Of a stretch of 32,000 nt of DNA, positions 1,020 to 16,670 are shown piece by piece. This DNA comes from Desulfocapsa sulfexigens DSM 10523 (GTDB lineage Bacteria; Desulfobacterota; Desulfobulbia; Desulfobulbales; Desulfocapsaceae), in contig NC_020304.1 of NCBI RefSeq assembly GCF_000341395.1, forward strand, positions 720,001 through 752,000. Direction: 5' to 3'. Made by a program: the position numbers and the translations under genes. A model generated the notes under the pieces. It did not search any database, had not been told where the DNA came from, and worked only from the letters and a program-made list of their open reading frames with translations. Within the stretch, counting starts at the first letter, position 1, and the number at the start of each line of letters is the position of its first letter.

Positions 1020-1592
1020 ATGACCAGGACACTATGTAGACCCGTATTCATCTTAGCTTTGACATTCTTCTGCTTCTCACTTGCCACACCTCTCATTGCT
1101 GCAGAAGTAGGCAAAGGGAAAATACCTGAAGATCAACTTGCAAAATCCTATAAGAAACTTGACTGGGGTGTTGCTATCTGGGACACCGACGAAGCTGTGG
1201 CCAATCTGCAAAAGGGAGAAAATACACTCTGGGTGGATACACGTCCGGAAAGCTTCTTTAAAAAAGGTACTGTAAATGATGCCGTTTTACTCATTTACAA
1301 CAAAAAAGGAATGGAAGAAAATACACTCACCCCGGAATCACTGGAAAAGGCTCTTGCCGATAAGGGGCTTGCCAAGGATCAGGCAACCATCGTGTTTTTC
1401 TGTCAGGGACCTAAATGTCACCGCAGCTATAACGCCAGTTTTGCTGCTGTTACCGAATGGGGTTATTCTCCCGAGCAGATTGTATGGAACCGCGAAGGCT
1501 ATCCCTTCCTCTTCAAAAAAGTACAGGAAGATGCCAAACTGAAGCGTAAAGCAAAACGCTATATCAGTGACGCCGGTGTGAAGCAACTGTAA
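1020..1592 (+). CDS. Secreted rhodanese-like (sulfurtransferase fold) domain protein
   Basis: AAGGAG lies 6 nt upstream of the ATG. N-terminal signal peptide (MTRTLCRPVFILALTFFCFSLATPLIAAEV). Rhodanese-type core WVDTRPESFFKKGTV...IVFFCQGPKCHRS with a Cys-containing active-site loop. Confidence 0.7.
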   Translation: MTRTLCRPVFILALTFFCFSLATPLIAAEVGKGKIPEDQLAKSYKKLDWGVAIWDTDEAVANLQKGENTLWVDTRPESFFKKGTVNDAVLLIYNKKGMEENTLTPESLEKALADKGLAKDQATIVFFCQGPKCHRSYNASFAAVTEWGYSPEQIVWNREGYPFLFKKVQEDAKLKRKAKRYISDAGVKQL

Positions 1593-1770: not shown

Positions 1771-2829
1771 GTGGCCGATATTCCTTACAAAAACAACTTT
1801 GATCTTTTGCGTCTGATACTGGCCTTTAGTGTTTGTCTGGCCCATATTGGAGCGGTAAGTGGCATCCAGGCTTTTTTCCCGCTGGGGGATTTTTTCAATT
1901 CTTCAATTGCGGTGGATTGTTTTTTTGTGGTCAGTGGTTTTCTTATCTTCAGAAGCTATAATCGTTCTTCACGCCTTCTTTCCTACTTCAACAAACGTCT
2001 TCGCCGTATTTATCCAGCATACCTGACAGTTGTTCTCCTTGCGGCCATTTTCCTGCCGCTGCTTATACGTCCAGATACAAACCTGATATTTTCTACCGAA
2101 TGGTTCCGTTATCTTTTTTCCAATCTGATTTTTTTAAATTTTCTGCAACCCCATCTCAGTGGAATCTTTTCAGCCAACCCTCTCTCTGTTATCAATGCTC
2201 CGCTCTGGACAATTAAAATTGAGGTACTATTTTATCTCTCTGTGCCACTCATCTTTTTTCTTTTCCGGGACAAAAAGAAATGGCTGATTCTCGTGTTACT
2301 CTATGGTGCTTCAGTCTCGTATTCACTCTTTTTAATACACCTCTACCTCAACACTGGAACCGATCTCTATCTCAGACTTGAAAAACAACTTCCAGGGCAA
2401 CTTGCATTCTTTCTAAGTGGCGGTGGACTCTACATCTACTTCTCCTTTTTTAGAAACCATTACTTGAAACTACTGCTGCCTTCTCTGCTCTTTCTCACTT
2501 TCAAGGGCAGCACCTTTATTCCTGGGATTTACCCTTTTTACCCTCTTGCACTAGCGGTCACAGTGATATCTTTTGCTCTCATCTTTCCATATCTGGGCAA
2601 CTGGGGAAAGTATGGAGATATTTCCTATGGTGTATATATATATCACTTTCCCATCCTGCAGATTTTCACTTTTTTTGGGCTCCTCAGAGAACATCCCTGG
2701 ATCGGCTTCACTTTTTTTATCCTCTCCGTTCTTATGACTTCGGCGTGTTCCTATCACTTTATCGAGCGCCCTTTTCTCCGTAAAAGCTCGCACTACAGAA
2801 AGGCAGCTGAGGAGAGCTCCCCCCAATGA
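1771..2829 (+). CDS. Acyltransferase family 3 (OafA/YrhL-like membrane O-acyltransferase)
   Basis: Polytopic, F/L-rich 352-aa protein. N-terminus NNFDLLRLILAFSVCLAHI and the VDCFFVVSGFLI motif are typical of acyltransferase_3. GTG start. The stop overlaps the next start (ATGA). Confidence 0.8.
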   Translation: MADIPYKNNFDLLRLILAFSVCLAHIGAVSGIQAFFPLGDFFNSSIAVDCFFVVSGFLIFRSYNRSSRLLSYFNKRLRRIYPAYLTVVLLAAIFLPLLIRPDTNLIFSTEWFRYLFSNLIFLNFLQPHLSGIFSANPLSVINAPLWTIKIEVLFYLSVPLIFFLFRDKKKWLILVLLYGASVSYSLFLIHLYLNTGTDLYLRLEKQLPGQLAFFLSGGGLYIYFSFFRNHYLKLLLPSLLFLTFKGSTFIPGIYPFYPLALAVTVISFALIFPYLGNWGKYGDISYGVYIYHFPILQIFTFFGLLREHPWIGFTFFILSVLMTSACSYHFIERPFLRKSSHYRKAAEESSPQ

Positions 2830-3908
2830 GTGTTCTGAAACCACCCGAAAATATCATCAGACGCTTCTGTTCTCACGCAGAGAGTGCCGAGATAACCACT
2901 CTTGGCCAGGGAAATATTAACGATACTTTTTTGGTACATGCAAAAGAGAAATCCTTTGTCCTGCAGCGAATCAACACTCAAGTCTTCCCTGATCCTCAGA
3001 TCCTGATCGACAATCTTCACCATTTGAGTCAACACCTGTCTTCACTCAAGGCCACGACGAAACAGCGCTGGGAAGATGCCACGCTTATTCCTGCACTGGA
3101 TGGCTCCTCCTCTGTCTGTGACCGAGAAGGATCAATATGGCGTGCCCTTACCTACGTTGAAGGCAGTATCTGTTTTTCCCATGCAACAACACTGCTCCAG
3201 GCAGAACAGACAGGGTGGGCCCTTGGACATTTCCACAAACGACTTATTGGGCTTGATGCTGAGAAAATGAAGATTCCATTACCGGGATTCCACTGTCTTG
3301 GAAACTATCTGGAACAGTACGAAAGACTCAAAGGAGAAAGGAGAGAGGGCAACTCTCCAGAAATAGCATTTTGCCAACAGATCATACAAGATCAACGGGA
3401 AGGTGCACTGATTCTGGAAAAAACAGTTTCCAAAAAGAAATACCCAGCCAGACTCAGCCATGGTGATCCTAAAATTGCCAATGTTCTTTTCGACAAACAA
3501 AATAGTCTTGCAATCAGTCTTATCGATCTGGATACCGTGGGCCCTGGACTTCTGCAGCATGATATTGGAGATTGCCTCCGTTCCGTCTGCAACAGGGGTG
3601 GAGAAGAGAGTAGTGACAAAGCTACCTTTGATCTAACGTTCTGTGAAGCAACCCTGAGTGGATATTTCAAAGCGGCCGAAGCGTTTCTGTTGTCGGGCGA
3701 AAGTGAATTGATCTACAACGGGATACAGGCCATCACCTACGAACTGGGACTGCGGTTCTTTACGGACTATTTACGGGGAGGCCTCTATTTTAAGAGTAAC
3801 ACCCCGGAAGATACTCTTCGTAAAGCCCAAGTACAGTTCACTCTACTGCTGGACATTATTGCCAAAGAGGACACCATCCGAAAACTGACCCTGCAACTCA
3901 GCAAATAA
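2826..3908 (+). CDS. Phosphotransferase family protein (APH/choline-kinase-like small-molecule kinase fold)
   Basis: Catalytic loop HGDPKIANVLFD and metal-binding LIDLDTVG motifs. N-terminal nucleotide-binding lobe (GQGNINDTFLV...FVLQRIN). 4-nt ATGA overlap with the upstream acyltransferase. Confidence 0.75.
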   Translation: MSVLKPPENIIRRFCSHAESAEITTLGQGNINDTFLVHAKEKSFVLQRINTQVFPDPQILIDNLHHLSQHLSSLKATTKQRWEDATLIPALDGSSSVCDREGSIWRALTYVEGSICFSHATTLLQAEQTGWALGHFHKRLIGLDAEKMKIPLPGFHCLGNYLEQYERLKGERREGNSPEIAFCQQIIQDQREGALILEKTVSKKKYPARLSHGDPKIANVLFDKQNSLAISLIDLDTVGPGLLQHDIGDCLRSVCNRGGEESSDKATFDLTFCEATLSGYFKAAEAFLLSGESELIYNGIQAITYELGLRFFTDYLRGGLYFKSNTPEDTLRKAQVQFTLLLDIIAKEDTIRKLTLQLSK

Positions 3909-3919
3909 CAATAGCTTTT

Positions 3920-5332
3920 CTATTGAAAGAGTAGCATGACATTAAGACTGGGGATATGCCACCCTGTTGACATTAAATAAATATAGATTCCAAACAGAAA
4001 AAAATACCCCACCTGAATAAAACGATACTGCCACCAGGCAATAACCCCCTCGAATTCCTCCTCATAAAACTTATCGAGTATGTACAATCCGGCAAGTTCA
4101 CTTACAAACATAATGGCAAGACCATAGGCAGGGTACACCCATTCCGGGACAGCGACTGTCAACGATTCCAATGCTTTTACTCCGAATTGCCTTCCAAAGG
4201 TCGGGAGAAAATCCGTAAAATTTCTGACCGTAAAGTTCAGTCTGCTTACCAATTCACCTCCAAAGGCAAGGGGCAGCAGAATTGGTACCATGGGAGAAAA
4301 ACGTCCCATTATTTCATCATTAAACACCCCGAACATGAGGTCACCATAGATGATAACAACATAAAGAATACTGAATCCGAGAAATAGTGGAACTGCGTAC
4401 AACCCCATCTGACAAACCCAACCATTCATGCAGGCTGATTGGATATTTTCCATTAAATTAAAAATATTCTGATCCAGCAAACGGGCAAGCTGAGATCCCA
4501 TAAGAAAAGGGATCATCAGGGTACAGCTTATAAGTCTTCCTTTTCGTATGATAAGTTCGGACAGTGGATGACGTATATTCAATTGCGGGGAGTTATGGTC
4601 ACAGAGGTGCATACAACGTCCACAGACAAGACATTCCAAATTATTAGTCACTTTATACGCGCCCAAAGAAACCGGGCAGCCAGGTTCCATCTCTGTTCCC
4701 CTGTTACAGGCAAATGTTGTACATTGTCTGCATGCACTGTGATCTGGCCTGAATTCAATCAACGAAATTGACGCCCCTATCCCCATTAACCGTCCCAGCG
4801 GACAGAAATATTGGCACCAGGCCTGTTTTGAGAACAGCATTGCACAGAAGGTTGCTCCGCCCAATATAATGAGAAGCAGCCAGGTGGTTTCTTTTGGGCT
4901 GTCCTTCATTCCAGTGGCCTCTTCCACCCAGATAATCGCCATAAAGAAACAAACTGAAATGGTGACACTGTTTTTTATCAGTATCTTTGGAACTTTTTTT
5001 TCAAGAGAAAGATGCCAGGTCTGAAGAAATTTACCGGCCACTGGAAAAGGGCAAACCCCACACCACAATCTGCCGACAAAAAAGAGGCTCAATATGACTG
5101 ATGGCCACCACACCCCCCAGCAAAGATACAGTATGATGTTGCTTCCGGGTGCTTGAGGTCCAAAAAGCCCGGAAAGAATCAAAACAAGAAAAAGTACAAC
5201 AAGGAATGTCTGCCAGATATGATGGAACCGCTGATTATAAAAGAGTCTCTGTAACCAGGGGAAAGTCTTGAAAAGATCGCATTTTTGTCCAGGGTCAGAG
5301 AACAACTTTGAGCACAAATTGAAAATATTCAA
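3920..5332 (-). CDS. NapH/MauN/CcoG-like polytopic membrane 4Fe-4S protein
   Basis: Two membrane-proximal CxxCP motifs (WCGVCPFP, WCQYFCPLG). They are followed by two ferredoxin-type Cys clusters (CRQCTTFAC..CP and CLVCGRCMHLC) and further C-terminal TM helices. The only start for the full ORF is TTG at 5332, 2 nt after the upstream stop. Confidence 0.75.
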   Translation of the reverse strand: MNIFNLCSKLFSDPGQKCDLFKTFPWLQRLFYNQRFHHIWQTFLVVLFLVLILSGLFGPQAPGSNIILYLCWGVWWPSVILSLFFVGRLWCGVCPFPVAGKFLQTWHLSLEKKVPKILIKNSVTISVCFFMAIIWVEEATGMKDSPKETTWLLLIILGGATFCAMLFSKQAWCQYFCPLGRLMGIGASISLIEFRPDHSACRQCTTFACNRGTEMEPGCPVSLGAYKVTNNLECLVCGRCMHLCDHNSPQLNIRHPLSELIIRKGRLISCTLMIPFLMGSQLARLLDQNIFNLMENIQSACMNGWVCQMGLYAVPLFLGFSILYVVIIYGDLMFGVFNDEIMGRFSPMVPILLPLAFGGELVSRLNFTVRNFTDFLPTFGRQFGVKALESLTVAVPEWVYPAYGLAIMFVSELAGLYILDKFYEEEFEGVIAWWQYRFIQVGYFFLFGIYIYLMSTGWHIPSLNVMLLFQ

Positions 5333-5334
5333 TT

Positions 5335-5937
5335 TTATTTCGCCTTACTTCTCACCGAAAGACAGCGCTTTTTAATCTGAAAACCGACTATCAAAGAAGC
5401 AATATAACTCAACAAAAAGAGCAGAGTGACAGAAACACCCTCCATACCAAATGGTTTGGAAGGAAGAAGAAAGAGATAGGCTTGTCCAGAAACTACGGGC
5501 AACACGTGTTCGTCCAGACTGCTGTTAAGCCAGGCCATAACCAGAAAAAGAGGCAAGAGATAAATCAGGACGTAGCGGAAGTAATGCTGAGCGAGATAGG
5601 TATTAAAATCTTCATCAATGGATTGATCGGCAGAGGTGTAAAGGGCATCTCTACTTCTTGGGTCCGGAATAATGGCGATGGTATCCCTTTCCGCCTTCTG
5701 GACAGTAAATTTCTCACGAAATGCTTTCTCCCTGACCTCGACTTTCAGCCACCTTCGGAGACAAAAGGCAAAGCCAACCGTGCAGATTGCAACAATAACA
5801 ACTTGCCCACTCGGAGGCAAAGAGAGAGCAGACAAACTATCCAGGAAAAAGAAATCGAAGACGTCCCTGACGCCAAGAAACAGCGGTTGCAGCATTCCAT
5901 AATAAATGAAATCAAGAATGGTGTTTACTACCTGCAT
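5335..5937 (-). CDS. Hypothetical integral membrane protein (about 3-4 TM helices with a charged helical segment after TM1)
   Basis: Hydrophobic segments VVIVAICTVGFAFCL, YVLIYLLPLFLVMAWL and VTLLFLLSYIASLIVGF. Same strand as, and 2 nt from, the downstream gene. No recognisable family. No obvious SD at the ATG. Confidence 0.5.
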   Translation of the reverse strand: MQVVNTILDFIYYGMLQPLFLGVRDVFDFFFLDSLSALSLPPSGQVVIVAICTVGFAFCLRRWLKVEVREKAFREKFTVQKAERDTIAIIPDPRSRDALYTSADQSIDEDFNTYLAQHYFRYVLIYLLPLFLVMAWLNSSLDEHVLPVVSGQAYLFLLPSKPFGMEGVSVTLLFLLSYIASLIVGFQIKKRCLSVRSKAK

Positions 5938-6029
5938 AGAAGAAAATTACATTTAATACGAAAATTTAAGCGCATGCCATAAACCAATAATGGAGTGAAA
6001 GTTTCCCCACCCCATTATCAGCTCTGTCC

Positions 6030-6058
6030 ATTATACCATTAGCGGCATCTACCACTAA
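6030..6058 (-). promoter_or_regulatory. Possible sigma-70 promoter (TTAGTG-17 nt-TATAAT) inside the 133-nt gap
   Basis: Minus strand reads TTAGTG (6058-6053), a 17-nt spacer, then TATAAT (6035-6030), upstream of the gene starting at 5937. Sequence match only. Confidence 0.3.
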
Positions 6059-6070
6059 GATATCTACATA

Positions 6071-7762
6071 TTAACGCATGAACCAAAGAAGTCCGGTATA
6101 CTGCATGAAGGTTAGAACTAAGGCGCCAGCAAGCAGCCGTTTGAGCAGAATCTCTGGCATTTTTTTCTGCAGTTTCGGACCAACCACACCACCACACATG
6201 GCACCAGCTGCGATAAGGGCTGCCATGATCCAGTCAGGCTGGTAGCCCATCATGACATATTTTGCAATACCACCAACCGAGGTGGAAAAAGCTCCAGCGA
6301 GTGCAATGGGCACTGCCAGATACATTGGATATCCTACCATTGTTGTCATAAAAGGCATAAACATAAAACCACCACCTACACCAAAGGAAGAGGCTATAAT
6401 TCCCATGACAACACCACCTAACAGCATCAACAGTGGCTTGGCCAAAAAGGTTTCACCCCAAAAGCGCATCTCAAATTTAATGGGATGAAACTTATCAAAT
6501 TCAATGGAACCCAGCTGCATGGCTTTGCCGGACTCTTTGGCTTCTTTTACCGCCGCATTAAATTTCTGGACAATGGCCTTCATTGCCTTTTTCTTCTCAA
6601 TGGAACTGGGCAATGACTCAACATATAATTTAATACCTATAACCAGACAGATTAAGCCGAGATAGAATTTAAAAGCAGCAAGATTCAGATATTTTGCTGA
6701 AAGTGGGGGACCAATAAAGAAAGCACCAATCACGATACCAATGGCAAATGGAATAGCCACGGGATAGGCAAACCGTTTTTCTTTGAGATAACTGAGCAAT
6801 CCACTGATGGGAGAACAAAGAGTAAGAAACAGGTTTGTGGGCTTAATGGTATTACCGGCGTTAATACCGATGGGACCATTGGTTCCAATAGCGGTAATCT
6901 GAAATGCCGCAGTAAACAGACCACCGGCTGCTCCCATAATAACAAAAAGAACACCGATAACAAAGGCACCACCAAAAACTACCAGCGGATTCATGTAAAC
7001 ATTACCTGTCTTAAAGAAAAATCCTGATTTCTCAATACTGAATGTATCAACCTTCGTCCCGTTCACATAGACGGCCATCACTGTATCGGGATAGAGATTT
7101 TTGTAGGGAGACATGGAGACGGAAAATTTTCCGGTGGCCTTGTCAAGACTTACCGAAACGCCGGTATTCCAAACCTCAGCCACAGTAGCATAATCACCCA
7201 GAACCATCCGGGCATTCCCACCAGTACTTGGCTTTTCTTTCACGATGGTATTCATCCCAAATCTATCCTCATGGGCGTAGGTCACCATCTTCCATTGCTC
7301 TTCAGTTGTTACAGAACCCAACATAGTCCGTATGGACGGATCAATATCAGTCCATGCTTTAATCTTGTTTACCCTGACATCGTACTTGAATGGTGGAAAA
7401 GCAAATATGCCAGAAGTCTGCCCTTTCGGTGAAACTTTAGGGGTTGCCAATGCTTCGGGATTACTGGTGACAATATAATACGATGGCGGGATAGCAGTTT
7501 CACCAAAAACGTTCTTCCCATCCTTCCCCTCCATCAGACGCTTCCTTTCTTTGGGCCCCGGAGCATCCTTTGCCGAAAACAGCTTATCCGTAGCAATGAC
7601 AACAAAAAGTTCCTGACCCGGATCGATATTTCCGGTAACTCCAATGGCGTCTCCTGCCGTAACCTTTTTCGTGCTTAAGGTGCCATCAACTGCCATGGCA
7701 TTGCCACTCACAAAGGCCATACCTACGACGAGGACAACTAAAAGTAATAAAATTCGCTTCAT
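6071..7762 (-). CDS. TauE/SafE (DUF81) family anion permease with a ~240-aa N-terminal periplasmic domain
   Basis: Strong SD (AAGGAGGGAG) before the ATG. Signal peptide MKRILLLLVVLVVGMAFVSGNAMA, then a hydrophilic beta-rich domain of unknown family. Gly-rich TM repeats (IMGAAGGLFTAAF..., SSFGVGGGFMFMPFM) typical of TauE/SafE, split by a charged cytoplasmic loop. Confidence 0.7.
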   Translation of the reverse strand: MKRILLLLVVLVVGMAFVSGNAMAVDGTLSTKKVTAGDAIGVTGNIDPGQELFVVIATDKLFSAKDAPGPKERKRLMEGKDGKNVFGETAIPPSYYIVTSNPEALATPKVSPKGQTSGIFAFPPFKYDVRVNKIKAWTDIDPSIRTMLGSVTTEEQWKMVTYAHEDRFGMNTIVKEKPSTGGNARMVLGDYATVAEVWNTGVSVSLDKATGKFSVSMSPYKNLYPDTVMAVYVNGTKVDTFSIEKSGFFFKTGNVYMNPLVVFGGAFVIGVLFVIMGAAGGLFTAAFQITAIGTNGPIGINAGNTIKPTNLFLTLCSPISGLLSYLKEKRFAYPVAIPFAIGIVIGAFFIGPPLSAKYLNLAAFKFYLGLICLVIGIKLYVESLPSSIEKKKAMKAIVQKFNAAVKEAKESGKAMQLGSIEFDKFHPIKFEMRFWGETFLAKPLLMLLGGVVMGIIASSFGVGGGFMFMPFMTTMVGYPMYLAVPIALAGAFSTSVGGIAKYVMMGYQPDWIMAALIAAGAMCGGVVGPKLQKKMPEILLKRLLAGALVLTFMQYTGLLWFMR

Positions 7763-7805
7763 ACTCCCTCCTTTTTTTGTTATCGAGCCAACAAACAGTA
7801 ATAAA

Positions 7806-9464
7806 TCATTTTATTTCTACAATTTTTGCATCCCCAACGTACTCTCTACTTTCAAAACCCGTCATACTTGTCATCTTTTGCGTCAGAACACCAATCTCCT
7901 TCAAGTTTCTGACAATCGTTTTTACGTCATCAATCAAATCCTGATTTTCCAGATCTTCTTCGAGGAGCTGCGCTGTTCCCAGAGCAGCAAAAAGTGGTGA
8001 ATTTATCTCATGGGCAACGGTTCCGGCAAGCTCGACGACCCCCTGAAGTTTTACCCGCTCCAGTTGTTCTTCCTCCAGCTGCCTCTTGGCTGTAACATCA
8101 CGTATCACTTCAATGACATACTCCACCCCTCCATCCGGACCCAGCATAGGGGAGGCTGTGCGCTCACACCAATGCACATCAGAACCCTGCAATATCCTGT
8201 GAGTAAAAGTTGCACTTTTTCCTGTCTCCAAAACTCTATCTACAGGGCAATCCTCTCTCATGCAGTCCTGATCCTGCCAGAGGCCATCATAATCACACCC
8301 CAGAAGGTCATTCTCAGAACGATTCATTACTTCCTGGAAAACCTTATTCACCAGGATCAGATGTTTTCCTTTATCGACCACCAATAACTGCGGCCTGATG
8401 CAATCCAAAATATTTGAAAGAAACCGCTCATTCTCCTCTATCTGATTAAACAGCAGCGTGATCTGCTGATACGTTTTAGCGTTGCGAATGGCAACGCCAC
8501 CAACCTCCGCAGCAGTGACTGCAAAATTAATTTCACTACTGGTAAAGCAATGTGAGACATCAGAGAGGATGCGCAACACGCCGATGACATCATTCCCCGC
8601 CTTGATCGGTACGGAAAGAAGTGACTTAATCCCCTCCTCCTCCATGTTTTTTTTGTAAAAAATCCGGTTATCCTGCCTCACGTCAAAGATAGAGACAGGA
8701 GAACCGGACAGAGCAGCCTCCACGTTCTTTTCATTCTCAACATCTCCCCGCTGCAGATATGTCTCAGACAAGCCGTAGGAGGCTACCAGTTCCAGCTGGT
8801 TACTCTGGGATTGAAGGAGACGTATGGAGCAGCCCTTACACCCAAGTGACTGGGGCAAACGTTCGACGATGGTGTCAAGCACTGCCGACAGATCAAGGCT
8901 GGAACTCACAAGAGTGGAAAGTTCCTGGATCTCCTTCATGAAATCCACCTGATTTTCCATCTCTGTAAACATCCTGCTGTTGGAGATCGCAATTCCAACC
9001 TGTTCCGCAAGGGCCATGGAGAATGAGATTTCATCCGCTGTAAAAATCCGCTTGTCTCGAGTAAGAAGACGAAGCATCCCGATAATTCCATCCTGAAAGA
9101 TAATGGGTAGAGTGAGAATTGACTTTACCCCCTCACTCTGCACCAGTTTCTGGTCATTATGACTGAATTCCTGATCCAGATCAGTCTTCGCTACGGGATA
9201 GCCGGAGCGGATCATCTCCATTGTTTCATCCGTGTCAATACTGATACGGGAAAGATACTCCAGCGAAAGACCATGAGCAGCCCCCATGACAAACTGACCG
9301 GTCTCGGCATCAAGCAGGCGGATGGTTGCTGCGTCTACTGCCATAAGGTCAGGCAGACTGCGGACGATGGTATCCATCACCTGTTGATGATCAAGAACCA
9401 TTGAGGTCAGCTTGGTCACCTTCTGGAAAACCTTGATGTACTTCTGTTCCTGTAACAGCGTCAT
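7806..9464 (-). CDS. GAF-GAF-PAS-HisKA signalling protein lacking an HATPase_c catalytic domain
   Basis: Two GAF-like repeats (…ILTLPIIFQDGIIGMLRL… and …LLSVPIKAGNDVIGVLRI…), a PAS region, and the H-box VAHEINSPLFAALGTAQLL. The protein ends ~65 aa after the H-box. Only 43 nt remain before the next gene, so no N/G1/G2 boxes are encoded. Confidence 0.8.
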   Translation of the reverse strand: MTLLQEQKYIKVFQKVTKLTSMVLDHQQVMDTIVRSLPDLMAVDAATIRLLDAETGQFVMGAAHGLSLEYLSRISIDTDETMEMIRSGYPVAKTDLDQEFSHNDQKLVQSEGVKSILTLPIIFQDGIIGMLRLLTRDKRIFTADEISFSMALAEQVGIAISNSRMFTEMENQVDFMKEIQELSTLVSSSLDLSAVLDTIVERLPQSLGCKGCSIRLLQSQSNQLELVASYGLSETYLQRGDVENEKNVEAALSGSPVSIFDVRQDNRIFYKKNMEEEGIKSLLSVPIKAGNDVIGVLRILSDVSHCFTSSEINFAVTAAEVGGVAIRNAKTYQQITLLFNQIEENERFLSNILDCIRPQLLVVDKGKHLILVNKVFQEVMNRSENDLLGCDYDGLWQDQDCMREDCPVDRVLETGKSATFTHRILQGSDVHWCERTASPMLGPDGGVEYVIEVIRDVTAKRQLEEEQLERVKLQGVVELAGTVAHEINSPLFAALGTAQLLEEDLENQDLIDDVKTIVRNLKEIGVLTQKMTSMTGFESREYVGDAKIVEIK

Positions 9465-9481
9465 AAAACTGTTATATCCCG

Positions 9482-12331
9482 TCAGATTTTTTCAATCTTT
9501 GTCTTGATATATTTCAAAGGCGGCGTTGCCGTCCATTTACATGTTGTATTCGGCCTCAGTAACATATTGGTATTAAATCCCTTGTACTGCGGGTATTTCG
9601 GATCACCTTCAAGTCCATACTTATGACCGAATCCACCGGCGGCAGCGAGTACACCCTGACGAATTCCCCAGGTAACATTGGCAACAGCCTCCACAGAGGC
9701 CCAGGGTGAAGTGATTTTCACTGCGTCGCCATTGGCAATTCCAAGTTCCTTGGCATCGACGTAATTAATCCACACAGGATTGCTTCCGCAGGCCTTCATC
9801 AGAGAAACGTTCCAGAAGGTGGAAGTGTGTTCATGCTCAAGAACCCGGAAAAAACCAGTGATCATGGGAAACTCCTCATCAGGCTGCAATTCAGGCCAAT
9901 CTTCCCAGGGATCCTTGTAATCAGGAAGTCCATCCACTCCGTTTTCTTCTGCAAGAGGATTCATGAAATTGTACTTTCCTGTTTTAGTGTTACCAGATGA
10001 TCCGTAACCGGCAGGTGGATTCATGGAACCCCATTCCTTATATTTGTAATACTCATGCCCGTCGGTGATGTGATAACCAACCTTGCGCAGCTCTTCCAGA
10101 GTAATTGGCTGATTGGAAAGCTGGTTTTCCAGGAACTCATCCTCGTTCTTCCAGGGGAAATATTCACCGTAGCCCAGGCGTTTGGCAATTTCCTGAAAAA
10201 TGGAGACCACTGATTTTGAATCGTACATCGGTTTGATGGCCCGCTGGAAAAGCGAGATAAAGGATTCATACATCCAGTCAGCAACCACCCGACTCTGTTC
10301 AAGATAGGTGCAGTCTGGCAACACCACATCACAGAGTTCAGTTGTGTTGGACATGTAACAGTCGATGGAACATGAGAATTCCAGTTTTTCAATGGCCCGT
10401 TTGACAGATGGCTCACTTCCGCAGGACATAACAGGATTACCAAAGTAGCAGAGCATGGCTTTGAGTTTTCCTTCATCCACATCCTTTTCAAAATAGGCGG
10501 GGATCCATCCACTCCAGAGATGGCCCTTATCAAGCTTTGTTTTAGGTGCATTGTTTGGTGGTTTAGGCTGATCGTCACTCCAGGCTGAAGCCAGTTTTTT
10601 CTTACGAATAAGAGACGGCCCACCGGGTGCATCAAAGGTACCCATCAGCCCGTTCATGGCAATAAGCGCCTGGGTGGCGTGCAGGGTATTCGGTGCCTGG
10701 GTGACACCGGTCCAGCTGTTGGTTCCAACAGCCGGTGCAGCAATGGCAAACTCATGGGCCAGACGGGTAATAGTTCCCGCTGAGATACCACAGATTTCAG
10801 CAGCCCATTCAGGAGTGCGAACGATACCGTCTTCTTCACCCATAAGACGTTTTCTGAACGCCTCAAAGCCATAGGTCCAGTTTTCAACAAAGTCTTTGTT
10901 GTAAAGATCTTCTTTCACAAGTACATAGCACATTGCCATGGCCATGGCGCCATCGGTTCCCGGCTTGATGGCTATCCATTCCGAAGCAATATTTGCAGTT
11001 TCACTACGCCTTGGATCGACCACCACCAGTTTGGCACCACGCTTGACTGCCTTTTTCAAATCGGCAACCTTACGCTGTCCCGCCGAAGTGGCCAGTTCAT
11101 TGATACCAAAAAGCATGATAAATTCTGAGTTTTCGTAATCTATCCAGGGACGCTTCTCACTGAAGTTTTTCTCGTTAGCCATACGTGCCGGATTATCACA
11201 CATCTGCCTGTGAGTGACTTTGTTCGGAGTACCGTAGGCTGCCATAACGGCTTCATGGCACCAGTTATTAAAATCATTGCCACGGTGAAAACCGACTTCA
11301 GTTGGATCGATCCGTTTCAGATTTTCCACGGTGCGGTCAAGGGCTTCTTCCCAGCTGGCCTTACGGAATCTTCCATTTTCCTTGATCAGTGGACTCTTCA
11401 GTCTGTAGGCAGAATATGTATTGTGGTGTGCATTGGCGCCCTTGATGCAAAGTCTGCCCCCCCCCTTTGGATCCCCAGGAAGTCCCTTACAGCCGGTAAT
11501 GATGTTATCTTTCACCCTCACCTCCTGTCCACAGAGGCCGAGACAGATGAAACAGTGCGATTTGACACTCTTCAACTTCTCCGGTGCAACGGTACCCTCT
11601 TCAAGAGTGACATACTCATCGCCAAGCTCAAGTGCGGCTATGGCCTGACTCATATGTTCCAGGATAAAACCGTAGGATTCATCAGTGGCCTGCTGGGAGA
11701 GCATGGCAAAGCTGAACATCCGCTCGTTGAAAAGAAAACTCATGGTGATCTCAGCAAGCCCCCGATAAAACTCAGTCTTGGCCGCACTGGTAAGCACCGC
11801 TGAGAACTCTACCACCCAACTCATAAGATGATTTCGCAGGAAATCAAATTCAGGCTCCTGTTTCACTCCTTTATAGGCCGCCTGTTCGGCAAAGTGACGC
11901 ATGAATTCAAGCTCGGCTGCGATATGATCATCCAGGTCAAGAAAGTCTTTATTCTTATGCAAGCCTGCGGCATTCAGGGCTTCACGCATCTTCACAACTG
12001 GTTCCTGCATAACAAGAGGTTCCCGGGTGGAATAGCAGGACTCGTAGGGAAAGGCTGGATTGTTACCGGCATTGAGAAAGAGATCCGCATATTCATAGCG
12101 CAGTTCATTGAATACTTCTTCTGCAGATGACGATTCAAGAGTACCGCGCATACGGCCAAGGCCTGAACAGAAATCCTGAATGGTACACACTTCCTGTAAT
12201 TTCTTTATCTGGCCAAGAAAAGCTCCTCCACCCATCTTTTCAATAAGCCACAGAGGCACTTCGTCCCGATAGAGGGTGGAAAGGAACTGGTAAATTTTTG
12301 CCCTGGCCAGATTTGTCGCTTTAATATCCAT
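9482..12331 (-). CDS. Fusion of a TorD/DmsD-like redox-enzyme maturation chaperone domain and a molybdopterin (bis-MGD) oxidoreductase catalytic subunit; no Tat signal
   Basis: aa 1-215 carry TorD-family motifs (YEYADLFL, FPYESCY, DDHIAAELEFM). aa 260-295 carry the MopB N-terminal 4Fe-4S motif CFICLGLC...RLC. Typical MGD-binding blocks follow (KLVVVDPRRSETA, AIKPGTDGAMAMAM), then the C-terminal molydop-binding domain (ANGDAVKITSPWASVEAVANV). SD AAGGAGAG precedes the ATG. Confidence 0.85.
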   Translation of the reverse strand: MDIKATNLARAKIYQFLSTLYRDEVPLWLIEKMGGGAFLGQIKKLQEVCTIQDFCSGLGRMRGTLESSSAEEVFNELRYEYADLFLNAGNNPAFPYESCYSTREPLVMQEPVVKMREALNAAGLHKNKDFLDLDDHIAAELEFMRHFAEQAAYKGVKQEPEFDFLRNHLMSWVVEFSAVLTSAAKTEFYRGLAEITMSFLFNERMFSFAMLSQQATDESYGFILEHMSQAIAALELGDEYVTLEEGTVAPEKLKSVKSHCFICLGLCGQEVRVKDNIITGCKGLPGDPKGGGRLCIKGANAHHNTYSAYRLKSPLIKENGRFRKASWEEALDRTVENLKRIDPTEVGFHRGNDFNNWCHEAVMAAYGTPNKVTHRQMCDNPARMANEKNFSEKRPWIDYENSEFIMLFGINELATSAGQRKVADLKKAVKRGAKLVVVDPRRSETANIASEWIAIKPGTDGAMAMAMCYVLVKEDLYNKDFVENWTYGFEAFRKRLMGEEDGIVRTPEWAAEICGISAGTITRLAHEFAIAAPAVGTNSWTGVTQAPNTLHATQALIAMNGLMGTFDAPGGPSLIRKKKLASAWSDDQPKPPNNAPKTKLDKGHLWSGWIPAYFEKDVDEGKLKAMLCYFGNPVMSCGSEPSVKRAIEKLEFSCSIDCYMSNTTELCDVVLPDCTYLEQSRVVADWMYESFISLFQRAIKPMYDSKSVVSIFQEIAKRLGYGEYFPWKNEDEFLENQLSNQPITLEELRKVGYHITDGHEYYKYKEWGSMNPPAGYGSSGNTKTGKYNFMNPLAEENGVDGLPDYKDPWEDWPELQPDEEFPMITGFFRVLEHEHTSTFWNVSLMKACGSNPVWINYVDAKELGIANGDAVKITSPWASVEAVANVTWGIRQGVLAAAGGFGHKYGLEGDPKYPQYKGFNTNMLLRPNTTCKWTATPPLKYIKTKIEKI
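11457..11465. repeat. C9 (G9 on the coding strand) homopolymer inside the oxidoreductase gene
   Basis: Plus strand is ccccccccc. It encodes K-G-G-G (AAG GGG GGG GGC) between Cys3 and Cys4 of the FeS motif. Confidence 0.95.
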
Positions 12332-12346
12332 AATACTCTCCTTTCC

Positions 12347-12733
12347 TCACACGCTCATAGCGCTTTTATTGCCTCTTGATTTCAGGACTTTCTCAACTTT
12401 TTCTTCGAGCTCATCACGATCAATGGGTTTGACACAATATTCATCGGCGCCAAGGCTTATTGCTTCACGGGCAGTTTCAACCGTTGGGTAGCCGGTGAGC
12501 ATAATGGCTTTTATGGATGGCTGGACCTCTTTAAGAAAACCCAGAACTTCGACCCCACTCATCTTTTCCAGCTTTATATCTAGAATGGCAAGATCCACAG
12601 TGTTCTCCTTGGCATAGGCGATGGCCTTATCCTCTTCGGTAAAGCAGTGTACCTTATGTCCTTTTTTAGAAAGAATTTTTCCTATCAGTACCGTTGCATC
12701 CTGCACATCATCTAGAGTCAGTATCTCAGCCAT
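12347..12733 (-). CDS. Single-domain response regulator (CheY-like receiver)
   Basis: 128 aa. Receiver motifs LAILDIKLEKMSG (phospho-Asp) and IMLTGY...A...GADEYCVKP. SD AAGGAG. Confidence 0.9.
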   Translation of the reverse strand: MAEILTLDDVQDATVLIGKILSKKGHKVHCFTEEDKAIAYAKENTVDLAILDIKLEKMSGVEVLGFLKEVQPSIKAIMLTGYPTVETAREAISLGADEYCVKPIDRDELEEKVEKVLKSRGNKSAMSV

Positions 12734-12761
12734 GATATCTCCTTGGTAGTTTGTTTTAGTA

Positions 12762-14348
12762 TCAAAATTGTTCCAGATTTAAGTCTTCATTTACAGACGG
12801 GGATTCCCGCAGTGTAACCGGTAATTTCACATGGAAAGCAGTGCCCCTTATCTTCTCGCCACCCCTCCCCTTCACAGGACTCTCGACCTCTATTGTCCCA
12901 CCGTGTTCTTGTACAATGCCGTAGGAGACAGATAGTCCCAGACCGGTACCTTTTCCTACGGACTTGGTGGTGAAGAAAGGATCGAAAATCTTTGTCACAA
13001 CATCCTCAGGGATTCCATGCCCCGTATCACGTACCGTGGCCACCACCCGGTTAGATTCCTCTTCATATCGGCTGGAAAGATATATATCACCGCCGCCGTC
13101 TTCTTCCATGGCATGGTGGGCATTGTTGATAAAATTGACAAAAACCTGACGCAATTTTTCGGTATCACCCACAATCGCTGGCAAATTATCACTGAAATCA
13201 CGGTGGGCATGGATATGATCCATATTCAGAGAATGTTCTGTCACAGCCAGGACATCTTCCAGTACCTCGTTTATTTGAATATTTTCACGGGCACTTTCCG
13301 ACTGCCGGGAAAACTTCAGTAAATCGGCTACTATTTTGCGGCAGGCTTTGGCCTGTCGTTCAATAACCTGAAGACTTTGTCCCTCCTCACTGTCAGGACT
13401 GAAATCATCCATCATCAGTTGAGAATACCCAAGAATTACACCAAGAGGAGTATTAATCTCATGGGCAACTCCGGCTGCCATCTGTCCCACCGATGCCATT
13501 TTCTCACTGGATGCAAGCTGTTCCATCATGGTTCTGACCCTGGTAAGATCCTTGGCAATCCCCTCACATCCTATAAAATTCCGTTCCTCATCATAAACCG
13601 CAGTTGCAGAAAGAAGGACATAGATTACACTCCCATCAGCCCGAACAAATTCAACTTCCAGATCCTCAACAAATCCTACGGCAATCAGGGTTTCAAAATA
13701 CTTTTCCAGATCATCTTCATTACAAAAAATATTCTGCAATGTAAGATTCCTCTCGTCTTCCATGGTATATCCAAGCATTTCCAGACCTGCCGTGTTCATA
13801 TTGACCAGCCTGTTCACCGAATCACAAAAATAAACCATATCCTTGGAATTAATAAAAAAGTTCCGGAATTTCTTTTCCGAAGCAGAGAGCTTTTTAGTGC
13901 GCTGTTCCACCATCTCTTCAAGATTTGCGTTCATCTTCAGCAACTTATCGGCAGAGACCTCCAGTTGTTCATTGGCCTCCTTTAAGCTTTTTGCTTTTTG
14001 CTGAATTGCACGAAACCCTTCTATCCCTTTGTGGTAATAGATACTTACTGCCGCAAGAGAGATCATTAACAGGGTGTTGAAGCCACCTGAGTAGGGAGCA
14101 AGAACATGCCACTGTTCCGTATTGTCAGCGATCAGAAGTAATTGTTTAAGAAGGTGCCCAACGGCCCTCGAAACGGAAAAGCAGACCAGAGTCAGGCAAA
14201 AATAGAAGAGAAATCCCCAGAGAAAATTTTCGGGTTGTTTACGAATCAGGAGCCAGGCATAACGCAGCGAGAGAAACGACAGCACAATAATAATAAAAGA
14301 GCCAACCATATCGACAAGAATGGCTGGAAGCATGATAAGACTGGTCAT
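12762..14348 (-). CDS. Membrane-bound PAS sensor histidine kinase (HisKA + HATPase_c)
   Basis: N-terminal multi-TM region, coiled coil and PAS domain. H-box [21 protein letters not shown]-box [10 protein letters not shown]1 DTGHGI, G2 GKGTGLGLS. The start overlaps the upstream stop (ATGA). Confidence 0.9.
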
Positions 14349-14818
14349 TCCTTCTCCTCCTCACAACTGCTGCGATAGATGCCCTTCATAGCAAGATAGA
14401 GAAAATAGAGAGCTGGAACGCTGAAAAGATGGTCAAGCTTAGTGAAATAAAACCAGAGCTTTACATTGGTGAGTGGTCCCTGAAGTCTGGTGGTCAGATA
14501 GCCTCCTTCACGGGTGAAATGGACACTGTCTACAAATGCAGCAAGAGAATGTCCTGTAAAGGCCACAATATTCCAGAGTATCATAAAAACACAACAAATC
14601 TGGAGATAACGCCATCCCTGAGACTTGAAGGCACTCTGGCGAATCCCCCAGATGAGATAACACATAGCAGCAGTATAAAAGATATGGGCCAATTGATGAA
14701 CGTATAAACCCTCCGGAGCACCGTGACTTTGTACAGCCCAGGCGTTCTCAGGAAACACAGTCAGCGTCATTAGGAGGAGAAACGGGGACATTCTGTGCGT
14801 TGTTTTAAGAAAGTTCAT
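14345..14818 (-). CDS. Small membrane protein of unknown function (signal peptide plus ~3 TM), translationally coupled to the kinase
   Basis: N-terminus MNFLKTTHRMSPFLLLMTLTVFPENAWA resembles a signal peptide, followed by hydrophobic helices. First gene after the sigma-54 promoter. 4-nt overlap with the kinase gene. Confidence 0.55.
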   Translation of the reverse strand: MNFLKTTHRMSPFLLLMTLTVFPENAWAVQSHGAPEGLYVHQLAHIFYTAAMCYLIWGIRQSAFKSQGWRYLQICCVFMILWNIVAFTGHSLAAFVDSVHFTREGGYLTTRLQGPLTNVKLWFYFTKLDHLFSVPALYFLYLAMKGIYRSSCEEEKE

Positions 14819-14905
14819 TCCGTACCATCAATGTATTATAGGCTTACCACAGACCTGTAAAAACCTGCCTTCCACAAGAGACAGTGGCCCACATCACACA
14901 TGACA

Positions 14906-14922
14906 TTGCACATACGGTGCCA
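14906..14922 (-). promoter_or_regulatory. Sigma-54 (-24/-12) promoter
   Basis: Minus strand reads TGGCACCGTATGTGCAA, against the consensus TGGCAC-N5-TTGCW. GG and GC have the exact canonical spacing. It lies ~85-100 nt upstream of the ATG at 14818 and directly downstream of a sigma-54 activator gene. Confidence 0.7.
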
Positions 14923-15029: not shown

Positions 15030-15056
15030 ACCGCATCGAAAAAGATGCACCGCATC
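15030..15056. promoter_or_regulatory. Candidate enhancer (UAS): repeated ACCGCATC with interleaved GATGC inverted repeats
   Basis: ACCGCATC occurs at 15030-15037 and 15049-15056. GATGC at 15044-15048 forms GCATC-N6-GATGC and GATGC-N3-GCATC palindromes. GATGCAC recurs at 15171-15177. The site lies 110-135 nt upstream of the -24 element. Confidence 0.4.
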
Positions 15057-15245
15057 AAAAACAGTGCAATGTTGAGTGTTGTGGATACTGCTGTAGGACA
15101 ACTGCTTAACGCAGATTTCACTAACAAACCATGAAAAGGAATACTATCGGAACACTGGTGCCACAAAACAGATGCACTCTTAAATGTAAGGAGGATGACC
15201 TCTCAGGGTACTGCGTGATACCTTAAGGTTCACTGCAGTGCGAAA

Positions 15246-16670
15246 TCAGCCTCTGAATGGCTGGGAACTCACCTTGAAACGCTGCATCAGGCGCTGGAAT
15301 GACTGCCGCCCCAATCCACTTTCACGAGCTGCAGCAGAAACATTCCCATTACTCATAGTCAGAGCTCTTTCCAGATAGGTCGAAGTGAAAGTAACCATCA
15401 CTTCTTCTTTTGCTTCGTTATAGGGAAGCTGATACACACACACAGGAACCTCAACTCCTCTTTTATCTTTCAAACCGTCCTCTTCCAGCTCTTCCGGGCT
15501 AAGAAGATCCTTGGGGGTGATTATATCGCCAGGGGTGAGCAGAACAGCGCGATTGATCCGGTTCTGCAGCTCACGGACATTCCCCTTCCACTCTCTGCGC
15601 TCCAGACATTTCAGTGCCTCCTGAGAAAATTCCATGCCTTCCCGGTGGTACTCCTGCACATAAATATTGAAAAAATGAAGCGCCAGCAGAGGTATATCTT
15701 CCCGTATCTCTTCCAGTGAAGGCATGGTAACCGTCATCACATTTAGACGATAAAAGAGGTCTTCCCGGAATTCTCCTCGCTCCATCTTCGCTTCAAGGTC
15801 CTGGTTGGTTGATGCAAGTACTCTAACGTCAACTTTCACAGTACTGGTCTGCCCCAGAGGCTGTATTTCTTTTTCCTGCAGGACACGCAGCAGTTTGGTC
15901 TGGAGTGAAACGGGAATATCGGCGATTTCATCAAGCAGGATCGTGGAACCCGACGCCTCAAGGAAGAGTCCGTCTTTATCATGATCAGCTCCGGTGAATG
16001 CGCCCTTGGCGTATCCAAAAAGCTCGCTCTCCAGGATCTGTTCGGGCAGAGCTGGACAGTTCACCGTGATCATTCTTTTCTTTCCGCGATTGCTCATTTT
16101 ATGAATGGTCCTGGCTGCGACTTCTTTCCCGGTTCCGGACTCTCCACGAATCAGGACTGTTGCGTCACTCTGCCCCAGTCTGGTCAGAAGATCTATTGCC
16201 CGTTGCAGGGGAACACTCTGACCGATAAACTCAGTGGTTTTGTCACTTTTTTGCAGCTCCTTATGCAATTGCTGATTCTCACGAAGCAGTTGTGTACGCT
16301 CAAATGCACGCAGAATAATCAAACTGATTTTGGAGTTATCAAAAGGTTTTTCAAGAAAATCGTAAGCCCCGTTTTTTAGAGCTGTCACCGCCATTTCTAT
16401 GGTTCCATAGCCCGTCATGATCACGACACTGATGGTTCTGTCTAATTCAGACACCCTGCTCAAGAGCTGCAGACCATCCATGTCAGGCATAACAATATCT
16501 GTCATGATCACATCCGGATGCCAGGATGCGATTTTCTCCAGAGCTTCCTTACCGGACCGGGCAATGGCCACATCGCACCCACATTTTTTTCCTAGAACCT
16601 TGCGCAAAAGAATCAGCAAATCCTTTTCATCATCTACTATCAATAACCGCCTGTTCTTGTCGGCCTCCAT
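15246..16670 (-). CDS. Sigma-54-dependent response regulator (NtrC family: REC - AAA+ - Fis-type HTH)
   Basis: Receiver domain (LLIVDDE..., VIMTDIVMPDMDG). Walker A GESGTGKE. The exact sigma-54 contact motif GAFTGA. C-terminal HTH GNVSAAARESGLGRQSFQRLMQRF. Confidence 0.92.
   Translation of the reverse strand: MEADKNRRLLIVDDEKDLLILLRKVLGKKCGCDVAIARSGKEALEKIASWHPDVIMTDIVMPDMDGLQLLSRVSELDRTISVVIMTGYGTIEMAVTALKNGAYDFLEKPFDNSKISLIILRAFERTQLLRENQQLHKELQKSDKTTEFIGQSVPLQRAIDLLTRLGQSDATVLIRGESGTGKEVAARTIHKMSNRGKKRMITVNCPALPEQILESELFGYAKGAFTGADHDKDGLFLEASGSTILLDEIADIPVSLQTKLLRVLQEKEIQPLGQTSTVKVDVRVLASTNQDLEAKMERGEFREDLFYRLNVMTVTMPSLEEIREDIPLLALHFFNIYVQEYHREGMEFSQEALKCLERREWKGNVRELQNRINRAVLLTPGDIITPKDLLSPEELEEDGLKDKRGVEVPVCVYQLPYNEAKEEVMVTFTSTYLERALTMSNGNVSAAARESGLGRQSFQRLMQRFKVSSQPFRG

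Follow-up and report, generated by a model that had tools for sequence, protein, structure and literature searches.

Introduction

The enzymes behind sulfur and thiosulfate disproportionation, and behind sulfide oxidation by cable bacteria, are still incompletely known, and Desulfocapsa sulfexigens serves as a model for disproportionation. Here we analyse 32,000 nucleotides of the D. sulfexigens DSM 10523 genome (NC_020304.1, positions 720,001 to 752,000 of the forward strand), called the window below and numbered from its first letter. The window holds a cluster of eight genes (g1 to g8), among them a MopB-type molybdoenzyme fused to a TorD-type chaperone (g4), a TauE/SafE-family permease (g6) and several signalling genes. 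Our preferred reading is that an accessory module, conserved in Desulfobulbales and Desulfobacterales, associates a cytoplasmic molybdenum enzyme with a TauE permease under sigma-54 signalling, a sulfur oxyanion being the favoured substrate; we regard this reading as evenly poised between standing and falling. The locus is in any case a concrete and testable candidate within unresolved sulfur metabolism.

The closest described enzymes are those of the PsrABC and PhsABC systems (Thermus thermophilus PsrA, PDB 2vpw; Salmonella PhsA), with which g4 shares the FS0 motif and an aligned cysteine ligand of the molybdenum. However, identity to these proteins is only in the low thirties per cent and the score, 310 bits, is far from the PhsA cut-off of 694. 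In addition, g4 is cytoplasmic, without a twin-arginine translocation (Tat) signal and with TorD fused to it; it is accompanied neither by PsrB nor by PsrC/NrfD, and the PsrA residues His145 and Arg332 are replaced.

In NarGHI (with NarJ) and in the sulfite-oxidising SoeABC the active site faces the cytoplasm and there is no export; maturation of Nar needs a TorD-family chaperone. The active site of g4 would likewise lie in the cytoplasm, again without export and, as in Nar, with a TorD-family chaperone. Nar and Soe, on the other hand, contain a B subunit with four clusters and bind quinone through a membrane subunit, and their chaperone, where present, is separate. The score of g4 with the NarG model is very low (78 bits).

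A further system, the MOLY cluster (MolyA, MolyB, MolyC), has been proposed as a marker of sulfur disproportionation in Desulfobacterota (PMC12998232). It too combines a Psr/Phs-like MopB with a TorD/DmsD-family chaperone, has no membrane anchor and occurs in sulfur-disproportionating Desulfobacterota, but its chaperone is a separate gene, it includes the iron-sulfur subunit MolyB and its enzyme has a predicted extracellular location (PMC12998232), whereas the window enzyme is chaperone-fused, without B subunit and cytoplasmic. The supplements of PMC12998232 gave no match to the D. sulfexigens accession. Membership of g4 in the MOLY cluster was rejected, since g4 lacks both a B subunit and a signal peptide and carries its chaperone in fused form.

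As for regulation, the AioXSR/ArxXSR systems resemble the locus in that a sensor kinase and a sigma-54 enhancer-binding regulator drive a MopB operon from a -24/-12 promoter; in distant relatives of the window locus a PhnD-like binding protein completes the triad. In the window itself, by contrast, g1 stands in the place of the binding protein, the system additionally comprises a CheY-like protein and a HisKA protein without ATPase domain, and the enzyme is not an arsenite oxidase. The membrane proteins have looser counterparts. The membrane CxxxCP motifs and cytoplasmic ferredoxin-type clusters of g8 recall NapH and the Fer4_5 polyferredoxins (NosR, CcoG/FixG, RdxA), but it lies far under the NapH threshold, carries about 160 additional C-terminal residues with further helices and has no NapG. 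The C-terminal 300 residues of g6 match the TauE/SafE (TSUP) sulfite/sulfonate exporters well above threshold; its 237-residue periplasmic DUF8269 domain is absent from characterised members, and it has an Oxa1/DUF106-like partner. Overall, the initial annotation was right to describe the parts list as unlike the known DMSO-reductase-family operons: no equivalog match, no Tat signal and neither B nor anchor genes were found. No description of the fusion, of the operon or of the accessions WP_015402900, AGF77202 and TAA74988 was found in the full-text literature and supplements searched, and the D. sulfexigens genome paper lists only generic molybdopterin oxidoreductases.

A chaperone-fused cytoplasmic molybdoenzyme

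The eight genes are co-oriented on the minus strand, from 14818 to 3920. The open reading frame (ORF) coordinates yield gaps between g1 and g8 of -4, 28, 15, 17, 43, 133 and 2 nt, identical to the values first reported, and Pfam and NCBIfam bear out the domain content originally assigned:

g1, 14345-14818, minus strand: 157 aa, small membrane protein
g2, 12762-14348, minus strand: 528 aa, PAS-HisKA-HATPase_c (Pfam)
g3, 12347-12733, minus strand: 128 aa, receiver domain only (Pfam Response_reg, 81 bits)
g4, 9482-12331, minus strand: 949 aa, TorD-MopB fusion
g5, 7806-9464, minus strand: 552 aa, GAF-GAF-PAS-HisKA (Pfam)
g6, 6071-7762, minus strand: 563 aa, TauE/SafE-family permease
g7, 5335-5937, minus strand: 200 aa, three-helix membrane protein with a coiled-coil hairpin
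g8, 3920-5332, minus strand: 470 aa, polytopic NapH-like membrane protein

The g4 product corresponds exactly to WP_015402900.1 / AGF77202.1. Its Pfam domains are, in order, Nitrate_red_del (TorD family, residues 56-176; 90.9 bits, cut-off 22.2), Molybdop_Fe4S4 (32 bits, cut-off 22.7), Molybdopterin (125 bits) and Molydop_binding (57 bits). The first of these also matches the TorA-specific chaperone (PDB 1n1c, E = 2.4e-15); since its score of 93.9 bits is under the NCBIfam TorD equivalog cut-off of 132, the chaperone domain is a TorD-family member and not TorD itself. The FS0 cysteines C260, C263, C267 and C295, together with C378, are invariant among 13 sequences of 53-79% identity, and Cys378 aligns with the molybdenum ligand Cys173 of T. 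thermophilus PsrA. The proposed TorD-fused molybdenum enzyme is therefore supported, with its cofactor-binding features intact. Of the 120 best homologues nearly all share the fused architecture, and those that do not are mostly truncated.

No membrane helix is predicted in g4, and residues 1-255 contain no twin-arginine motif. Because the chaperone domain occupies the N-terminus and this motif is missing, Tat export is excluded and the enzyme must be cytoplasmic, in agreement with the earlier suggestion of a catalytic subunit without Tat leader.

The closest structure is PsrA (2vpw), with E = 4.5e-70, or 7e-91 when a profile is used, and the best curated model is NCBIfam PhsA (310.6 bits against the equivalog cut-off of 694). 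The scores obtained with ArrA, YnfE/F and other curated models are far under their cut-offs and below that of PhsA. When a library of 1.84 billion cluster representatives was searched, the score fell from 962 bits within the clade (one full-length sequence) to 313 bits for the next protein, at 35% identity. The nearest unfused relatives, 33-36% identical, are unassigned Phs-like proteins which are also under the PhsA cut-off. The placement of the enzyme outside any characterised clade is thus upheld by the PhsA score and by the drop in bit score at the border of the clade, and the TorD-MopB fusion appears, from these comparisons, to be an isolated clade within the Psr/Phs-like radiation that belongs to no characterised family at equivalog level. 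Three specific identities were rejected: formate dehydrogenase (low model scores, and Asp instead of His after the cysteine ligand), ArrA/ArxA (134 bits, where the cut-off is 1600) and assimilatory nitrate reductase.

The fusion is carried by Desulfocapsa, Desulforhopalus vacuolatus (87% identity), Desulfofustis glycolicus (71%), cable bacteria (62-68%) and Desulfobacteraceae (about 54%). Strains available in culture include D. sulfexigens DSM 10523, Desulforhopalus vacuolatus DSM 9700 and Desulfofustis glycolicus DSM 9705. These self-chaperoned cytoplasmic molybdoenzymes, an isolated clade tied to a TauE and sigma-54 cassette, seem to have been overlooked by published gene inventories, and they widen the range of MopB architectures to a catalytic subunit with a fused chaperone and without B or C subunits.

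The permease and its Oxa1-like partner

The predicted topology of g6 comprises a signal/anchor helix, a hydrophilic periplasmic stretch of 237 residues and then the TauE domain (PF01925; residues 263-553, 97.4 bits against 32.6). The N-terminal domain of about 237 residues is beta-rich; our Pfam scan, even at permissive thresholds, assigned it to no family, while precomputed Pfam data label it DUF8269. An AlphaFold2 (AF2) model based on a 27-sequence alignment reached some confidence for this periplasmic domain only. Compared with the PDB using Foldseek, the model returned nothing below E = 0.02 and only generic immunoglobulin-like sandwiches, so the fold gives no clue to the ligand. An NCBIfam match of g6 to MamO was set aside, as it reflects the shared TauE domain only.

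The window g7 protein taken alone has no Pfam match, even at permissive thresholds, and its single-sequence AF2 model (mean predicted local distance difference test score 57) was too poor for a fold search. However, a profile of the family, built from 14 relatives, matches MJ0480 (PDB 5c8j), an archaeal DUF106 YidC-like protein, with E = 5.3e-7, and three of the 14 relatives match Pfam EMC3_TMCO1 (PF01956; best E = 2.5e-9). On the basis of these two matches, we identify g7 as a putative divergent bacterial protein of the Oxa1 superfamily, in the DUF106/EMC3/TMCO1/MJ0480 branch. To our knowledge this branch has been described from archaea and eukaryotes; g7 would bring a bacterial member into the otherwise archaeal and eukaryotic DUF106 branch of the Oxa1 insertases. 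In the loci compared, the g7 gene is always next to that of the long (DUF8269-containing) TauE.

Conservation of the neighbourhood

The neighbourhood of the enzyme gene was compared in 80 genome loci, together with loci looked up singly (given below by their L numbers). In Desulfocapsaceae the genes follow the order dikinase-like, phosphatase, activator, g1, kinase, CheY, TorD-MopB and GAF/HisKA. Therefore the initial annotation, which had delimited the cluster as eight genes, was correct as to the genes present but too narrow as to the extent: the conserved cluster is longer and reaches upstream to 20087, including three further genes:

enhancer-binding response regulator gene, 15246-16670, minus strand: receiver, AAA+ domain, HTH_8
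phosphatase-like gene, 16676-17632, minus strand: 318 aa, Pfam Tc-R-P, PTP-SAK, DSPc
dikinase-like gene, 17634-20087, minus strand: 817 aa, PPDK_N and PEP-utilizer (swivel-His), Pfam

The phosphatase-like gene starts 1 nt after the dikinase-like gene and ends 5 nt from the activator gene; its product is of the Cys-X5-Arg dual-specificity type. The dikinase-like protein is under every NCBIfam equivalog cut-off, and about 300 residues at its C-terminus have no assignment; its best PDB matches are phosphoenolpyruvate synthases, over the ATP-grasp part only. The two genes co-occur in the same loci, down to 52-54% enzyme identity. In Desulfocapsaceae the dikinase-like gene precedes that of the regulator, and in the distant loci L075, L077, L080 and L084 it adjoins the TorD-MopB gene; in L048 the phosphatase-like gene is found between g7 and g8. 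The pair recalls plant glucan water dikinase and its phosphatase.

The position of the transporter genes varies. The long TauE and g7 genes follow the cluster in the closest clade, precede the enzyme gene in L033 and L044, and adjoin it, often divergently, in Desulfobacteraceae; the pair accompanies enzymes of 52-54% as well as of 87-94% identity. A shorter TauE subtype, whose members are 51-68% identical to each other, stands in for it in Desulfofustis, Desulfaltia, Desulfovermiculus and some of the cable bacteria. Frequencies were counted in the 33 related loci having at least 6 kb on each side of the enzyme gene, each gene being scored within 6 kb of it:

g1: 20/33 loci
any TauE: 18/33 loci
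phosphatase: 13/33 loci
dikinase-like: 13/33 loci
long TauE: 9/33 loci
g7: 8/33 loci
g8: 3/33 loci

The link between the enzyme and TauE thus appears real and old, although not universal. Of the proposed conserved trio (TorD-MopB, TauE and the NapH-like g8), the TauE part stood, as this gene recurs across distant lineages, while the NapH-like protein is restricted to five close loci. Both computational outcomes that had been named as speaking against the initial annotation, a place in a characterised clade and the lack of any conserved neighbourhood, were looked for, and neither was found.

A sister locus on an aquatic metagenome contig (L092:261-17789) keeps the eleven-gene scaffold in the absence of the TorD-MopB fusion. 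It retains the dikinase-like, phosphatase, activator, g1, kinase, CheY and GAF/HisKA genes, a long TauE (74% identical) and a g7 homologue; after the TauE gene come an unfused MopB of 703 residues (27% identical to g4) and a ferredoxin of 150 residues. This MopB-ferredoxin pair also occurs in L005:15174-19753, where it comes after the fusion and precedes a GltD-like flavoprotein. Sensing and transport would thus form a scaffold serving interchangeable cytoplasmic molybdenum enzymes. That the enzyme is exchanged on an otherwise conserved scaffold favours a substrate in common and speaks against g4 being purely sensory.

Sigma-54 promoter and signalling genes

The following elements were identified upstream of g1:

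sigma-54 promoter TGGCACcgtatgTGCA, 14907-14922, minus strand: exact -24/-12 consensus match
probable activator sites, 15031-15068, minus strand: tandem TGCAY...GATGCA palindrome-like repeats
further activator-like site, 15158-15177: similar to the TGCAY...GATGCA repeats
5' leader hairpin, 14865-14884, minus strand: CTGyC-loop-GGCAG

The promoter, placed about 89 nt 5' of the g1 start, is the sole exact TGGCAC-N6-TGCW match in the 32-kb window, in which about 0.1 would be expected from base-frequency arithmetic. An element of the same kind, TGGYRY-N5-KTGCW, is present 75-190 nt 5' of the g1 homologue in some 25 related loci. When nine orthologous intergenic regions are aligned, activator-like palindrome blocks stand out as conserved about 110-150 nt upstream of the promoter; in L013 the site is a perfect palindrome, TGCATCA-N4-TGATGCA. 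These TGCAY...GATGCA blocks are probable binding sites of the activator. The enhancer-binding protein itself (Pfam Sigma54_activat, 220 bits) has GAFTGA and Walker A motifs, and its gene is kept directly upstream of g1 in related loci. The sigma-54 promoter with its dedicated enhancer-binding protein, as first proposed, is therefore borne out by the unique consensus match, the adjacency of the two and their conservation across related loci, and sigma-54 control of the cluster can be considered well supported at the sequence level.

Downstream of the promoter, the short hairpin of the 5' leader is a conserved block in nine related loci and was also flagged by a stem-loop scan. The folding of the whole 5' leader is unremarkable (z = -1.2). 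A search of the whole window with Rfam at gathering thresholds retrieved no known RNA element, for example no molybdenum cofactor riboswitch.

The g1 gene is always found directly before that of a HisKA protein, and here it overlaps g2 by 4 nt. Its product has a signal peptide and three hydrophobic segments, and matches no Pfam family even at permissive thresholds. An alignment of relatives reveals invariant Q30, H32, E36, H41, H45, H90, D129 and H130, the first of which belong to a near-invariant motif, Q-x-H-x3-E-G-x3-H-Q-x2-H, placed directly after the signal peptide. This motif, with the conserved H90 and D129-H130, points to a sensor subunit of the kinase that binds metal or haem, and g1 is likely the sensing partner of g2. 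The g1 profile also has a weak match to the SdhC cytochrome b556 (E = 0.011), which is only a hint at a haem- or quinone-binding role.

The g2 product is, according to Pfam, a PAS histidine kinase whose HisKA and ATPase core is complete; it is anchored in the membrane, with a predicted topology of N-terminal membrane helices and no periplasmic domain. The g3 gene remains directly upstream of the TorD-MopB gene even in loci of 54% identity (L005, L052-L060). Finally, g5 is kept after the MopB gene in Desulfocapsaceae; the protein has an intact H-box, AHEINSPL, and ends 20 residues past HisKA, which is too little for an ATPase domain. It could act as a phosphotransferase or a phosphatase.

Proposed function and substrate

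In the mechanism that we favour, the catalytic part would be a soluble cytoplasmic enzyme of the Psr/Phs-like type, with molybdenum (or tungsten) held by bis(pyranopterin guanine dinucleotide) and with its own TorD-type chaperone fused at the N-terminus. The TauE/SafE permease, together with the Oxa1/DUF106-like partner, would move the small anionic substrate or product of this enzyme. A signal would be sensed in the membrane by the His-rich g1 and kinase g2 and might pass through the CheY-like g3 and the ATPase-less g5 as a His-Asp-His-Asp phosphorelay, an order which is tentative. The enhancer-binding response regulator, bound to the upstream palindromes, would then activate the sigma-54 promoter.

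The substrate would most likely be a sulfur oxyanion, for example thiosulfate, sulfite or a polysulfide-type species. This class is favoured because of the Psr/Phs-like relatives of the enzyme, the association of TauE/SafE transporters with sulfite and sulfonates, the carriers, which are sulfur-cycling bacteria (Desulfocapsa, Desulfofustis, Desulforhopalus and cable bacteria), and the PhnD/AioX-type neighbours. With respect to the latter, binding proteins of the PhnD/AioX family, with a kinase and a sigma-54 activator, adjoin the enzyme gene in other lineages, and neighbours of this type, as known from AioXSR-type systems, point to a periplasmic oxyanion signal.

Several observations weigh against this reading. 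A profile alignment with 2vpw places glycines (G351 and about G542), both within invariant motifs of the fused clade, at the PsrA pocket residues His145 and Arg332; because these residues are replaced, the specificity of g4 must differ from that of polysulfide reductase, and the caution of the initial annotation that the substrate cannot be read from the sequence was justified. No TauE gene occurs within 6 kb in 15 of the 33 loci, including many cable bacteria and a Desulfocapsaceae group of 78% identity, and the 18 loci which have one are a raw count. The dikinase-like and phosphatase genes have no place in the model, and a purely catalytic role leaves unexplained why the enzyme gene is tightly flanked by two signalling genes. 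Moreover, the hairpin between g6 and g7 (see below) may split the genes into two transcripts. Neither experiments nor expression data on any member of the clade were found in the literature searched.

A bolder version of this proposal would make the TorD-fused enzyme and TauE an unrecognised cytoplasmic step of sulfur disproportionation or oxidation in Desulfocapsaceae and cable bacteria, for instance the long-sought cytoplasmic thiosulfate- or sulfite-converting molybdoenzyme, working without a dedicated electron-transfer subunit, gated by a four-step phosphorelay with a new His-rich sensor and assisted by an Oxa1/DUF106-type insertase; we consider this full version unlikely. Should the enzyme turn out to use an ordinary substrate and a soluble donor, the result would be a useful annotation and not a conceptual advance.

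The same architecture could instead serve a non-sulfur oxyanion (an As, Se or Te species, or phosphite) in detoxification or scavenging. The recurrence of PhnD/PtxB/AioX-family binding proteins beside the enzyme gene fits such a role, and so do the phosphoryl chemistry suggested by the phosphatase and dikinase-like genes and a pocket unlike that of PsrA. In Ca. Electronema aureum (L003:3171-12763), in particular, a gene for a PhnD-like binding protein precedes that of TorD-MopB by 40 nt, and close by are genes for a PstS-like/OmpA protein, two porins and a PhoB-type regulator, a context resembling that of phosphate starvation. However, this Pho-like context is confined to Electronema; it is complete only in Ca. 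Electronema aureum and in L046, a close relative, and is reduced to a PstS-like gene in L037. Since, in addition, the ArrA, YnfE/F and other curated models score below PhsA, TauE/SafE transporters are linked with sulfite and sulfonates and the carriers are sulfur specialists, we find a non-sulfur substrate rather improbable.

Electron supply and the NapH-like protein

The initial annotation had noted that the locus has neither a four-cluster B ferredoxin nor an NrfD-type anchor. Indeed, no PsrB-type ferredoxin or NrfD-type anchor is present among the window ORFs of at least 100 aa scanned with Pfam, although the sister locus does use a ferredoxin subunit. The enzyme has no dedicated electron-transfer subunit that is conserved along with it. 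It is simplest, therefore, to assume a soluble donor, and the general electron donor would probably be a soluble carrier such as ferredoxin.

A different proposal was that the enzyme belongs to a quinol-coupled, cytoplasm-facing respiratory complex in which the NapH-like g8 provides the membrane electron link. The g8 protein does have the appropriate features. As in NapH, CxxCP and CxxxCP motifs are combined with two ferredoxin-type motifs (CGVCP, CQYFCP, CRQC...C...CP and CLVCGRCMHLC in the sequence), and the Cys-rich loop of 142 residues that contains the latter (168-309) is predicted to be cytoplasmic, in agreement with the claim of iron-sulfur clusters facing the cytoplasm. The gene starts 2 nt after g7, and the two are tightly coupled in every locus with g8. 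However, such loci are only five (L006, L008, L014, L048 and L049), all close, with enzymes 80-94% identical; the otherwise complete operons of L009, L012, L013 and L028 stop at g7, and Desulforhopalus vacuolatus, whose operon is otherwise complete, lacks g8 despite ample room. Furthermore, g8 scores 24.6 bits with Fer4_5, 32.6 bits with NapH TIGR02163 against a cut-off of 213, and 29.9 bits with PRK09477 against 234, and no NapG-like gene was found among the window ORFs scanned with Pfam. Homologues of 41-54% identity (Dissulfurirhabdus, Dissulfurispiraceae, Thermodesulfatator and others) lie beside unrelated housekeeping genes, with no MopB neighbour.

Because g8 is restricted to five close loci and absent from complete operons, it is not a general electron link. 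This part of the initial annotation needs revision; quinol coupling through g8 is weakly supported, and a respiratory complex of this kind seems distinctly improbable. Most likely g8 is a recent, lineage-specific addition in the D. sulfexigens clade. There it may serve the enzyme and may, but need not, link it to the quinone pool.

The g8 family counts 118 homologues of 450-470 aa, notably in sulfur-disproportionating genera. Its named members belong to Dissulfurirhabdus, Dissulfurimicrobium, Dissulfurispiraceae, Thermosulfuriphilus and Thermodesulfatator, which are sulfur-disproportionating or related thermophilic genera. Family genes are solitary in varied contexts (L089-L091, L093 and L094), and the distribution may merit a study of its own.

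Transcript structure

The 133-nt gap between g6 and g7 contains one further element:

g6-g7 gap hairpin, 5981-6024, minus strand: terminator- or attenuator-like

The hairpin is strong and the folding of the region has z = -3.1. A GC-rich hairpin, of varying sequence and often followed by a T-run, lies directly 3' of the long-TauE gene in most related loci (L006, L008, L009, L012-L014, L044, L048, L049, L061, L066, L069, L070, L074 and L077). It looks like a conserved internal terminator or attenuator, and therefore a single eight-gene transcript is uncertain. The initial description of a sigma-54-driven eight-gene operon is accordingly retained as to the co-oriented genes and the promoter, and left in doubt as to the single transcript. 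Readthrough into g7-g8 may be partial, and the layout may be better read as eight co-oriented genes, probably transcribed as g1-g6 and g7-g8.

It could be argued from this hairpin, from the reshuffling of the parts between lineages and from the clearly independent origin of g8 that the genes are neighbours without a shared function: regulatory genes forming a cassette, an enzyme gene that stands alone, and a transporter unit, either g6 or g7-g8, separate from them. This is very unlikely, as the gaps from g1 to g6 are short or overlapping and the linkage of enzyme, TauE, g1, kinase, activator, dikinase-like and phosphatase genes recurs, in varied orders and orientations, down to enzymes 52-54% identical, which chance adjacency fails to explain. 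It is hardly credible, finally, that TorD-MopB is chiefly a sensory or regulatory protein giving redox or ligand input to the flanking CheY/HisKA phosphorelay instead of a metabolic enzyme: although in Desulfocapsaceae its gene stands between those of the CheY-like protein and of the ATPase-less HisKA sensor, and at 54% identity still has a CheY gene upstream and g1-like and HisKA genes downstream, cable bacteria have the enzyme gene without any of these signalling genes, L092 has all the signalling genes without the fusion, and the catalytic and cofactor motifs of g4 are all invariant.

Flanking genes

Past the end of the cluster, the opposite strand encodes a methyl-accepting chemotaxis protein (28-993, plus strand) and a rhodanese-like protein of 190 aa (1020-1592, plus strand); a rhodanese gene is also found near the TorD-MopB gene in the Desulfaltia locus L087. 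An APH-family phosphotransferase gene (2826-3908, plus strand) is convergent with g8, the stop codons being 11 nt apart, and this position next to g8 is kept in L006 and L014.

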